Shown here one piece after another: positions 14,637 through 22,437 of a stretch of 64,000 bases of DNA (position 1 is the first letter of the stretch; each line of letters opens with the position of its first letter). The notes below the pieces were generated by a model, which did no database searches, was not told the origin of the DNA, and saw nothing but the letters and a program-made list of their open reading frames with translations. This DNA is from Sphaerodactylus townsendi. Its lineage: Eukaryota. Position numbers and translations under genes: made by a program. Location of the stretch: NCBI RefSeq assembly GCF_021028975.2, contig NC_059437.1, positions 33,852,001-33,916,000 on the forward strand. The letters are read 5' to 3'.

Positions 14637-17600
14637 ATGTCAGAAAAGAGCCATCGCTTGAAGTCGTCCCCTGGCAAAGTGTCTCTGAAAACTGCCACTG
14701 CCGGTAAACAGTGGACTGATCTGAGCAGGTGATGTGTTCTTAGGTTTCTTGCAAGGGCCTGACCCAGAAAACCACTTGGTCAGAGAGGCACACAAGCTTT
14801 GGGCTGGCTAGGGATTAACTGCTGGAGGGTTGAGGGGACCCTATTACTCTCCCCACTCCAATCTGCAGGAGGCCAGTGAGTGTAGATCAGACTTTTCTTT
14901 CCTTGAGGTTGACATTTAAGGACTGCTCAGAAACCACAAGACATCTGTTGGCTCTTGTGACAGAAGGCTTCTCCTAGAGGCTCATAAGCAGGAGGTGGAG
15001 AACTTGGTTGCTTAGTGAATGCTGAACATGCTCAGAAATTGTCTTAGTTCCTTCTAGTCTTTAACTGAACTTATGATGAATCAAATCACATGGGGACAGT
15101 ATATGTAAAGAAAGGGAAACCCTTGCTGAGACCACTGGCCTTTCCCATATACCGAAACAGCCCAAAGATCATGGTGGGCTGCACATGTGCTGAATAATTG
15201 CTGTTGGAATTGACAAAGGGGGGGGGGGGGCAGGAGCCCCCTCCTTCCCTGGGTCTCAGTGGAAATCTGAATTGGACCACTGCCATGCTATTACACAGGA
15301 GTTGCCATCATGGACTTTCAGCAGTGGCGTAGGAGCAGCAGTGGTGTAGGAGATTAAGAGCTCGTGTATCTAATCTGGAGGAACTGGGTATGATTCCCCG
15401 CTCTGCCACCTGAGCTGTGGAGGTTTATCTGGGGAATTCAGATTAGCCTGTACACTCCCACACATGACAGCTGGGTGTCCTTGGGACAGCTTCTCGGAGC
15501 TCTCTCAGCCCCACCCATCTCACAGGGTGTTTGTTGTGAGGGGGGAAGGGCAAGGAGATTGTCAGCCCCTTTGAGTCTGCTGCAGGAGAGAAAGGGGGGA
15601 TATGAATCCAAACTCTTCTACTCTTCTTCTTCAAGTGCAATATGGTTGCCAGTCACCATTGGCAAATTCTGTAAAATCTGGCCCATTCCTGGGGCTGGTC
15701 CTGGGCAGCTCCTTGCAGCAATACTCCTATACCAGCAGTGGGCTCCATCTTGCCCGCTGGAGATCGTGTGCCTTTCTCCCTGCTTGCCCAGGTAACAGAC
15801 AAGGATACTCTGTGTCTGGGCTTGGAAATCTCCTCCAGCGGGTGTGCAGGAAGCAAGCCCTCTCCTATGGGAGCTGACACCAAAGCAGTGTCACTCTCTC
15901 TGCCAAAACAAAGAGCTGCTTTGGCTTTCCAGAACTTCCTTAGTGCAGGAGGTCCATTAGAAGAGCCCAGGAGGCATTGCTTGCAAATCGGCAGGAGGGG
16001 CTCATTTACTTGTTTGTTTGGTTATTTACAACATTTGTACTCTGCCCAGCTGCCCAGGGAGTGGAGGGACAGGGTTGCCAATGCGCATTATTTCTTTTAG
16101 TGAGTTTTGTGGGGTCAATAAGCCTGTATGAGGTCAATTTTTGGTTTGGACTAATACAGACTAATACAGAGATCCTGTTTTTATGAGTGATGGGAGAGGA
16201 GGAGGGCAAAAAGCCTAGTTCCTTCTCTGTCTCGGCAGATGGTGACCAGCCTATTTTCCTATTTTCCCTCCATAGAAGGCCATCAGCTGACGATGACACC
16301 TCTTCAAAGCTGCACCGGATTGGTGCAGGGGATGCAAACCAGCAATCCTCCAGTTCCTCGCAGAAAAAGAGCCTTGGCCGGTACTTGTGGGGTTGCTTGA
16401 AGGGTAAACACGGTACAAACAAGGCCAAGGGGCAATTTCTGGAGCCTTTAGAGCAGGAAGGCAGTCTCAGGTGGGATTGCCATTGTATGGGATTTTTGCT
16501 TCAAGACTGATCAGAATTCCTTCCTGTGGCCTAAAACATCCTTTGTTCAACCCAGCAAGGACTGGCATCGAGAATTTAGACTCCTGTGGCTTCAGTTTCT
16601 AGTTTTTTATTGAGGGAGAGGGGAATGGAGGCTACTCTGTCTTTTGGCTGATTGCTGAAGCTTCTTGTCCTGTTGTGACTTTGAACTGTTATTTATACCT
16701 GGGCCAACATTCTACCCTTTGGACCAGAGGCTGCCAAATACGATGGTGACTGGGGGGCCTGAGGATGACCAGATGGCTTTCTTTTCAGATTTTTAGACCT
16801 GTCCTCTGAAATGTCCGAGTTCTGCTTCTGTCCAATAAAACTGGCTGTAATGGGGCAGCTTTATTTTTTCTGAAGAAGCTTTGAGTAAACATTTGACTGA
16901 CAGGCTGTCACTTTAGGAGCTGAGCTCTGCCCACGGTCCTGGATGGAGACAGCAATGCAATTGCAGTTTCTTTTTTAAATTATAGAATTCGTAAATTTGC
17001 ATCTTTTGATGTAGATCAACATATGCAAATGTTATCCTCTTTTCCTCTCTCTCATCCTCTTTGTTGGTCATCCATAGATGTCCACCATGGTCTTGTTGGA
17101 AGTAGTCGGGACAACTGCCTCAGGTCACCTCTAACCTAGACCAGATCCCTGAGGCTGCCCAAGTGGTTTGTTCCAACTTTTCCATGCTGCAGAATGACTG
17201 TGTGCTCTTTTCTTGGCTTGCTAACTGTTCCTTTCTGCTTCTGTTCCTTTCTAGGATAGCCCAGCTGGTGCTGGTGCTCAGGGAATGGGCCAACAAAGGT
17301 CTGCGAAAAGAACCACCACGCCCAGATTCTTTCCTTGAACGGATCCGTGGGCCAGAGGTGCAGACCTTGTCTTCAACTACAAGTAGCAAAGCTGACAGCC
17401 AAGATAAAGAAGGCGGCAAAAAGAAGAAGTAAGAGTCCTTCTTTGCACTGAAGCAACATTCAGTGCAATCCCAATTAAAAGTGCTCCATTCGAAGTCCGT
17501 TGGTTTTAGGAGGCTGTATTTCTACTTAGAATTTCACAGATTGTTTGCTCACTCTGAGGAGATCCAGACTCTCTGTTATGAGGCTGTTTGCCACCCACTC

Positions 17601-20600: not shown

Positions 20601-22437
20601 TTGGGGTTGTAGCATCGTTTTAGCAACCTCTCTCTGCCCTGTGAATTCCCCACTGTGAAGACAGAAAATCTGGGTAGGTTGTATTTTGATGTCACCATCC
20701 AAACTGACTTCCTCAATTAGTATAATTTACACATCTTGAATCTGATGAAGGCTACAACTTACAAAATGTGGTGACTGGGTAGAAATATTTCAGTAATTAT
20801 GTTGGTATATGGTTGAAGACTTTCACAGCTGGAATCACTAGTGTTGTGGGTTTTCTGGGTTGTATGGCCGTGTTCCAGTAGTATTTTCTCCTGATGCCAG
20901 CCACAGATGCATGTGAAACTTTAGGAGAAAATACTACTGCAACTAACCAACCCTGGCCATTCCCAATTATTTGACATTATTATGGTATTATAAAAAGACA
21001 AGGGACTATGGTTAATACCTGTTTTCCCTGGCAGGTTTCCTTGAGCAGGGCTTACTCGTCAGAAACTCCAAGAAGCTGGGCGATAAGTATGTTGCCACCT
21101 TACAATTCAAGCTTGATATTCTCTCTGTTTTACCCACTGATTTTGCATACATTGCCACGGGCTTAAACCGGCCTGAGGTCCGGTTCAATCGGCTGCTACG
21201 CTTCTCTCGCATGTTTGAGTTCTTCGATCGAACTGAGACGAGGACCAGCTACCCAAACATCTTTAGGATCTGCAACCTAGTGTTGTACATCTTGGTCATC
21301 ATCCACTGGAATGCCTGCATTTATTATGCCATTTCCAAGTCCATTGGCTTTGGAGTGGACACCTGGGTTTATCCAAATATATCCGATCCAGAGTACGGCT
21401 ATCTGACAAGGGAGTATATCTATTGTCTCTATTGGTCTACCCTGACCTTGACAACCATTGGAGAGACCCCTCCCCCTGTGCGGGATGAAGAGTTTCTCTT
21501 TGTCATCTTTGACTTCCTGATTGGTGTCCTCATCTTTGCTACTATTGTGGGAAATGTGGGCTCCATGATCTCCAACATGAATGCCACCAGAGCCGAGTTC
21601 CAGGCCAAGATCGATGCTGTGAAGCACTACATGCAATTCTGCAAAGTGAGCAAGGACATGGAGGCCAAGGTCATCCGGTGGTTTGACTATCTCTGGATCA
21701 GTAAGAAAACTGTTGATGAATGGGAAGTACTCAAGAATCTCCCTGACAAGTTGCGAGCAGAGATAGCTATCAACATCCACCTTGAGACCCTGAAGAAAGT
21801 GAGGATATTCCAGGACTGTGAGGCTGGCCTCTTGGTAGAACTCGTGCTGAAGCTCCGCCCTCAGGTTTTCAGACCTGGCGATTATATTTGTCGAAAAGGG
21901 GACATAGGAAAGGAGATGTATATCATTAAAGAAGGGAAGCTGGCTGTGGTGGCTGATGACGGCGTGACTCAGTATGCTTTGCTAACTGCAGGGTGCTGCT
22001 TTGGCGAGATCAGCATCCTCAACATCAAAGGAAGCAAAATGGGGAACAGGCGGACAGCGAATATACGCAGCCTTGGCTACTCTGACCTCTTCTGCCTGTC
22101 AAAGGATGACCTCATGGAAGCAGTGATGGAGTACCCTGATGCCAAGAAAGTTCTGGAGGAACGTGGCCGAGAGATTCTGGTCAAAGAAGGGCTGTTGGAT
22201 GAAACAGAAGCTTCTGAAAGCATGGAAGGGAACATGGGACAGAAACTGGACCGGCTGGAGAGCAGCCTGGAGATGCTGCAAACCCGCTTCTCCCGGCTCT
22301 TGGCTGACTATGACGCTGCTCAGATGAAGCTCAAGCAGCGCATAACCTTCTTGGAGAACAAACTGAAGCAATCCAACCAGAGTGACTTTTTCTCTGATGC
22401 CTCTGACAACCTACTGGAGGATGAAGGGCAACCATGA
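14637..22437 (+). CDS. CNGA2: Cyclic nucleotide-gated olfactory channel alpha subunit (CNGA2 or CNGA2-like), 6 coding exons, 662 aa
   Basis: Exons: 14637-14728 ([13 protein letters not shown]..), 16276-16380 ([12 protein letters not shown]..), 17255-17428 ([27 protein letters not shown]), 19007-19114 ([24 protein letters not shown]), 20182-20288 (ACFNELQ..IRLRTG), 21035-22437 (FLEQGLL..S4 EVRFNRLLR, pore [30 protein letters not shown]). Total 1989 nt, open frame, GT-AG introns with compatible phases. [16 protein letters not shown] and C-helix Glu ([10 protein letters not shown]) are CNGA2-type. Confidence 0.92.
15319..15632 (+). mobile_element. tRNA-derived CORE-type squamate SINE (Squam3-like) with (CTT)n tail
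   Basis: tRNA-like head, CORE-like GCTGGGTGTCCTTGGG..CTCAGCCCCACC, CTTCT tail. Near-identical copies at 32245-32537 and 36737-37045. The first 17 bp are tandemly duplicated. Confidence 0.8.
20811..20940. mobile_element. Penelope-like element terminal fragments in inverted arrangement
   Basis: Shares TGTATGGCCGTGTT and GATGCCAGCCACAGATGCA with the 60.8-kb copy; 17-bp perfect inverted repeat CAGTAGTATTTTCTCCT / AGGAGAAAATACTACTG. Confidence 0.7.

Follow-up and report, generated by a model that had tools for sequence, protein, structure and literature searches.

The question raised by this locus is how a gene for the olfactory cyclic-nucleotide-gated channel subunit CNGA2 came to lie between DERL3 and SLC2A11 in the gecko Sphaerodactylus townsendi. 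The window analysed here, meaning the whole stretch of DNA, comprises 64,000 nucleotides (NC_059437.1, positions 33,852,001 to 33,916,000, forward strand); plain positions refer to the window, and those prefixed C13 to the contig that carries it. The CNGA2 gene in the window, hereafter copy A, is derived, and the ancestral position is held by a second gene, copy B, 146 kb away. From the sequences, the history we favor, with somewhat more confidence than doubt, is that copy A is an intact daughter produced by a 21-kb inverted duplication and likely a relaxed spare subunit, reduced in function or differently expressed, while copy B likely stays the working olfactory gene.

Copy A is a complete CNGA2 gene

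Copy A (14637..22437, plus strand) encodes 662 amino acids in six coding exons. Exon 1, with the start codon, lies at 14637..14728; exon 2 at 16276..16380, with E42K and Q44H within the conserved DDTSSELQR motif; exon 3, encoding the N-terminal regulatory region, at 17255..17428, with R69Q, E84K, E87P and F96I; exon 4, which does not differ from copy B, at 19007..19114; and exon 5 at 20182..20288. Exon 6 (21035..22437) encodes the pore, with TIGETPPP intact, the C-linker, the cyclic-nucleotide domain and the leucine zipper, and contains R398C, N418S, V443I and S475R. All five introns are GT-AG, the single stop is terminal, the 662-residue frame is open, and the Pfam domains Ion_trans, cNMP_binding and CLZ are present together with an intact pore filter. 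Among solved structures the best match is human CNGA2 (1108 bits), ahead of CNGA3 (912), CNGA1 (882) and CNGA4 (659), and the top database matches are gecko CNGA2 proteins at 91-94% identity. Copy A therefore has the sequence and domains of the CNGA2 group, but not its position between the GABRA3 cluster and PRRG3. The gene is already annotated, since the public 662-residue record P0122 is identical to copy A; P0121 and P0122, which are the two public models of the locus in the cluster listing, both correspond to copy A.

The first-pass annotation had described a complete six-exon CNGA2 gene between DERL3 and SLC2A11, and its exons, splice sites, domains and neighbours were all seen. It had also proposed an origin at the DNA level, which is borne out by the five introns and the flanking DNA copied along with them. 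A retrocopy is ruled out, given the retained introns and the lack of a target duplication at the junctions. A long CA microsatellite lies 3' of the stop codon (about 22490-22570).

The ancestral locus lies on the same chromosome

A genome search with the last exon of copy A gave 17 matches: copy A itself, a CNGA3-like exon on contig C4, ten weak matches (29-43% identity), and five pieces on the contig of copy A, 140-160 kb upstream of it. Upstream of the window lie copy B, a full six-exon CNGA2 gene (C13:33720382-33711999, minus strand), and fragment C, a partial exon 6 that has decayed and contains stops and long indels (C13:33728099-33727072, minus strand). The copy count that the first-pass annotation had proposed as a check thus comes to two full-length genes, A and B, plus the exon-6 fragment. 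Fragment C lies upstream of copy B and next to a 644-bp piece whose orientation is opposite to that of the remaining block, and the fragment is missing from the corresponding block around copy A; fragment and piece together point to a further complex rearrangement.

Two lines of evidence place the origin of copy A close by. First, the gene order across C13:33.39-33.76 Mb is a GABR beta-type gene (minus), GABRA3 (plus), a gamma-type gene (plus), copy B (minus) and PRRG3 (minus), which is the order and orientation of human Xq28 in reverse. With GABA receptor genes on one side and PRRG3 on the other, copy B is the ancestral locus and copy A the daughter. Secondly, the GABA-receptor cluster, copy B and PRRG3 are all 100-480 kb upstream of copy A on the same chromosome, so the move was a local inverted duplication over 146 kb. 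A long-range translocation is ruled out because the ancestral neighbours are on the same contig. The first-pass view that CNGA2 is outside its expected syntenic context consequently holds for the site of copy A, but that context has not been lost.

Several features of this region may be recorded alongside. Two tracts of almost exactly 5.0 kb, consisting of C with a 16-base period, flank PRRG3 (C13:33736916-33741916 and 33768006-33773003) and are probably coded assembly gaps, not genuine DNA; despite them, the gene order around B and A agrees with that of Gekko kuhli. The Xq28-type block (PRRG3) gives way to the 22q11-type block (MMP, SMARCB1) somewhere within 75 kb (C13:33755632-33830032), and a glycine-receptor-like gene, identified by eye, lies at C13:33068416-33068900, 320 kb past the GABA receptor cluster.

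The duplicated block and its junctions

Copy A sits in an inverted duplicate block of 21.4 kb (8045..29430, plus strand), the partner of which, C13:33704487-33732412, holds copy B and fragment C. The homology is inverted, with 84-98% identity over the main pieces; non-coding divergence is 5.4% (17,143 aligned bases) and synonymous divergence (dS) 0.086. The block has the properties of a segmental duplicate, in that introns and flanks were copied and more than 1 kb is shared at about 90% identity or more. Divergence along it is very uneven, from 1.4 to 15% per 500 bp (chi2 394, 39 bins), a patchiness suggesting that gene conversion between the inverted copies may have evened out parts of the block. 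Tandem duplications are found within the block at 11243-12047 (314 bp, 2.6 copies) and 28686-29112 (211 bp, 2 copies).

The right junction (29420..29440) is taken from the assembly, and the left junction (8042..8074), 438 bp upstream of the DERL3 start, was checked in reads over window positions 7660-9000 in four of 12 listed runs. In X1 (organism A) and X4 (organism B), one assembled contig connects the DERL3 promoter to the block and a second, carrying the flank of copy B, joins the block at 8045, so that both flank forms meet there. The overlap past the junction is 30 letters, which is where such contigs branch and just under the 31-letter bridging rule. X1, which may be the assembly's own sample, also contains paired A-type and B-type contigs (bubbles), with 22 of 22 listed variant letters matching B. 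In X5 (organism C, from another study; two contigs), a flank contig reaches 27 letters past the edge of the block, where it meets one contig only, whose letters are those of B at all 19 listed places, a pattern that would fit a shared duplication whose copies were evened out in that lineage. Depth in X5 is 70 in the block against 40 in the flank, which fits two collapsed copies, although depth is not copy number and gives a weak hint. X8 was left out of the counts because of low depth and because 11 of its 16 contigs were only partly on the stretch. At the left junction, then, both copies are in the animal and not just in the assembly, and the misassembly at a flank that the first-pass annotation had named as its refutation is largely ruled out there by the assembled reads of X1 and X4.

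The site of copy A is lineage-specific

Synteny in other species was read from accession numbers and from shared contigs, matched by eye. In four of five other geckos the accessions of CNGA2 and PRRG3 differ by 1-3; the run in Gekko kuhli, for instance, has CNGA2 at 682, PRRG3 at 681 and SLC2A11 at 673. Outside geckos, 11 of 13 tetrapods have CNGA2 and PRRG3 on one contig, and both exceptions are scaffolds below 250 kb. By accession order, therefore, four of the five other geckos have CNGA2 next to PRRG3, which bears out that the site of copy A is lineage-specific, and an ancestral CNGA2 site between DERL3 and SLC2A11 is ruled out. CNGA2 and SLC2A11 share a contig in all five geckos with lengths shown and in none of nine non-gecko squamates. 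This contig-sharing pattern indicates that the junction of the Xq28-type and 22q11-type blocks is gecko-wide and the insertion of copy A narrower. Markers of the Paroedura Z chromosome that match chicken 4p and 15 agree with a gecko-wide junction (PMC8622242).

In a 26-row protein tree, rooted on the CNGA3-like exon of the same genome and built with CNGA1 and CNGA4 left out, A and B form a clade (support 100/100) inside gecko CNGA2, sister to Euleptes (92/81), with branch lengths of 0.040 for copy A and 0.0064 for copy B. The tetrapod CNGA2 records examined gave no hint that other geckos have a second copy. A literature search, with most subscription journals outside its reach, found nothing on a gecko CNGA2 duplicate.

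These results also bear on whether the locus is an artefact, with two haplotypes or a misjoin taken for two copies, or simply a known ancestral order. The assembly is indeed patchy around B, and two probable gaps lie between the loci. However, the copies differ in their flanks, by 5.4% in non-coding sequence and by kilobase indels, both left-junction forms and the A/B bubbles occur in the assembled reads of X1, the window has no N and no gap-like tract, and other geckos and tetrapods keep CNGA2 with PRRG3. We regard either form of this explanation as highly improbable.

Copy A lacks a candidate olfactory element

Upstream of copy A, at 13810..13816, a 5-bp filler replaces 1,464 bp that are present upstream of copy B (C13:33721177-33722640). 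At the end of the B-only piece is TTCCCCAGGGAA, which matches the Olf-1/EBF-type consensus perfectly and lies 809 bp before the start codon of B. Such a perfect motif is expected 0.01 times (500 shuffles of the 12-kb upstream region); no perfect match was found in the upstream region of copy A, and 264 kb of scanned sequence contained one other, near PRRG3. Apart from repeats of 70 bp and 220 bp, the B-only piece is single-copy in searches that skip very common words, which makes loss from A likelier than gain in B; an origin by transposon insertion was rejected on the same ground. EBF sites are known to cluster upstream of human odorant receptor genes (PMC4982115), and the candidate site may drive CNGA2 here.

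Copy A has changed more than copy B

Polarised with six gecko proteins, the 28 amino-acid differences between the copies comprise 20 derived in A, 5 derived in B and 3 left unresolved (20 versus 5, p=0.004). Thirteen of the changes in A are N-terminal and seven are in the core. At N418S, V443I and S475R the ancestral residue is fixed in 149 of 149 homologues, and it is nearly as well conserved at R398C (144/149), F96I (136/139) and E42K (108/116). Of 292 columns with a conservation of at least 98%, four differ in A and one in B; at least four departures occur in 5 of 149 homologues. The seven core changes compare with 47 expected if neutral (ratio to neutral 0.11-0.15), and the 13 N-terminal changes with 14-20 expected (0.65-0.9). 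By these ratios the core of copy A is still constrained, whereas selection on the copy as a whole appears relaxed.

Four of the seven core changes lie at residues 398-475, which by alignment belong to the C-linker and the beginning of the ligand domain; it is through this region that ligand binding is coupled to the gate (PMC10761061 and PMC12549891). The N-terminal calmodulin site of CNGA2 is described as dispensable in the native channel (PMC12549891), so the N-terminal change may cost little. At residues 206, 207, 417, 560 and 596, A and B share states absent from 17 aligned homologues; one of these is T417I, where 145 of 149 homologues have T. Either the C-linker changed before the duplication, or conversion spread the change.

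The residue R398 deserves separate mention. Its counterpart in human CNGA3, R427, gives the allele R427C, reportedly described by Koeppen in 2008 as a colour blindness allele with impaired surface expression. We also take R420 of CNGA1 to be equivalent to residue 398. C398 of copy A aligns to CNGA3 R427 with an offset of 29 in the structure 8ETP. CNGA1 R420Q has reduced function (PMC13214374), and the accessible part of PMC10761061 makes no mention of R427.

The first-pass annotation had regarded a second paralogue as free to take a new role. The relaxed constraint on copy A fits the freedom, but no region exceeds the neutral rate, and a new function is possible only. Under such neofunctionalisation, A would now act in a different cell type, or its gating would have been retuned, and its substitutions would be adaptive. 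The cluster of core changes in the gate-coupling region, the near-neutral N-terminus, and a block that adjoins the DERL3 promoter with the upstream motif gone are all consistent with this. Against it, besides the rates, R398C is a CpG transition with a mirror change, to H, at the same residue of fragment C, and 5 of 149 homologues also differ there; its human CNGA3 equivalent is reportedly a disease allele with impaired surface expression; and the contigs of organism C near the junction carry B letters only, which suggests that the divergence of A is not common to all carriers. We consider this explanation doubtful, and doubtful to the same degree the picture it would lead to, of a group of small geckos with a second working CNGA2 outside the olfactory programme, a retuned gating ring and a residue responsible for colour blindness when it occurs in the human cone channel. 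If true, a tetrapod would have naturally gained a new subunit of cyclic-nucleotide-gated channels, in a genome where neither CNGA1 nor CNGA4 was found.

The loss of upstream sequence would also fit a copy A that was recently silenced, for example by that deletion, and is a pseudogene with neither stop nor frameshift yet. Its three- to four-fold acceleration over B is uniform across N-terminus and core, as after a short neutral phase following long constraint, and its changes at invariant sites look like decay. However, its splice sites and frame are all intact, and core change at 0.11-0.15 of neutral would leave only about a tenth of the branch for any neutral phase. We judge recent silencing improbable.

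The favored history and the state of copy B

According to the history we favor, in which A is the daughter and a spare, a stretch of 21 kb that includes CNGA2 was copied by break repair or template switching and placed, inverted, next to the DERL3 promoter; the union of the Xq28-type and 22q11-type blocks in geckos would have made such a local insertion possible. Both copies would at first have been kept under selection. A would later have lost the upstream piece with the Olf-1/EBF-type motif, and its expression would fall or shift; under weaker selection, the C-linker and N-terminal changes would alter gating or surface delivery, with the pore and ligand site constrained. Patchy gene conversion between the inverted copies would have evened parts of the block.

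This history should be interpreted with some caution, since several observations weigh against it. Accession order is only a proxy for gene order, and Euleptes is uninformative. With two 5-kb tracts between B and A, their distance and relative orientation rest on scaffolding. The upstream motif is a candidate regulatory site, placed by its distance from the start codon in this genome. Synonymous changes number 11 in A and 5 in B (the exon-6 part polarised with fragment C), so part of the excess in A may reflect a faster clock, and the nonsynonymous share, 5/11 in A and 0/5 in B, does not differ significantly (Fisher p=0.28). The excess in A is also alike in N-terminus and core (Fisher p=1), and a domain-specific release of the N-terminus is accordingly unsupported. 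Finally, copy B as assembled has a net loss of 4 bases in the pore motif, with a stop at codon 356.

This last point opens another explanation, relocation by alternate retention, in which B died very recently from the pore frameshift and A is the sole olfactory CNGA2. In its favor, A is the only intact CNGA2 found in the genome as assembled, its core is under purifying selection, and both public models correspond to it, although these derive from the same assembly and are not independent. The decision turns on whether the frameshift is real. It is the only one in B; the splice sites and the remaining frame are intact. Clustered short gaps in near-identical flanks have the look of uncorrected long-read sequence. 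Short gaps are missing letters in the block of B far more often than in that of A (94 versus 35, p=2e-7), patches of two or more number 15 versus 2, and several lie within near-identical flanks. The pore lesion is one of the 15 patches, three gaps in 20 bp with at most one mismatch in 60 bp on each side, and resembles the other 14. The core of B, moreover, has two amino-acid changes where 29-47 are expected if neutral, so B has not been dead for long, and B keeps the invariant residues and the upstream motif that A does not. The gap patches and the strong purifying selection together make the frameshift probably a sequence error; in the favored history it would be a patch of uncorrected sequence and no mutation. 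On these comparisons copy B is probably intact, and we consider its recent death unlikely. Of the two possibilities offered by the first-pass annotation, a relocated channel or a second paralogue, the latter is thus favored, the former holding only if the frameshift is real, against the error pattern. Were B truly dead, the animal would smell with an altered channel, the more surprising outcome.

Neighbouring genes

The left neighbour, DERL3 (3170..7607, minus strand, 3' end approximate), starts at 7607, and its exon at 4329-4523 matches Pfam DER1; SMARCB1 and an MMP gene just upstream of the window agree with the identification of this DERL-type gene as DERL3. In its promoter the assembly has three extra letters at 8010 (8008-8012) relative to all four runs, which is a small assembly error or a private allele. 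SLC2A11 (35724..47359, plus strand), located from exons after the first, is the right neighbour. A second, more divergent SLC2A11-like gene (55325..64000, plus strand) continues beyond the window end. After SLC2A11 there are at least two further SLC2A11-like genes and a MIF-like exon (C13:33939024-33939284).

Relation to known systems and significance

Copy A shares with vertebrate CNGA2, which is the principal subunit in the olfactory CNGA2/CNGA4/CNGB1b channel (PDB 9UPF; PMC12549891), its domain order, TIGETPPP, cyclic-nucleotide domain, leucine zipper and six coding exons; it differs in being a second copy at a non-ancestral site, with altered fixed residues and without the upstream motif segment. 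Teleosts likewise retain two CNGA2 genes, cnga2a and cnga2b (PMC9803222 and PMC13378369), and one zebrafish copy is without expression in an atlas cited in PMC9803222. That pair came from whole-genome duplication, whereas the gecko pair is a young local inverted segmental duplication in a tetrapod; in the surveyed fish, local duplicates of cyclic-nucleotide-gated channel genes are kept to a minimum (PMC9803222).

The gecko copies, with a faster daughter and patchy rates, resemble other young segmental duplicates. In these, a daughter in a new context evolves faster, and gene conversion acts between inverted repeats. The mechanism is hence nothing new, and the interest is in which gene was copied. 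C398 is, by alignment, the same Arg-to-Cys change as the human CNGA3 achromatopsia allele R427C, but in copy A it occurs in the assembled sequence of a spare olfactory subunit amid other C-linker changes.

Loose searches of this patchy assembly found CNGA2 (A, B and fragment C) and one CNGA3-like gene (C4:95.67 Mb), and did not find CNGA1 or CNGA4. A missing CNGA4 would be odd for an olfactory channel, and a missing CNGA1 would fit the cone-type photoreceptors of geckos (PMC4948711).

In conclusion, the public models represent the divergent copy A, and the probable working gene, copy B, looks like a pseudogene, so the wrong copy could enter selection studies of olfactory genes in geckos. With its conservative and its relaxed member, the young pair would be a natural experiment both on a candidate olfactory promoter element and on residues of the C-linker, among them one that corresponds to a human disease allele.

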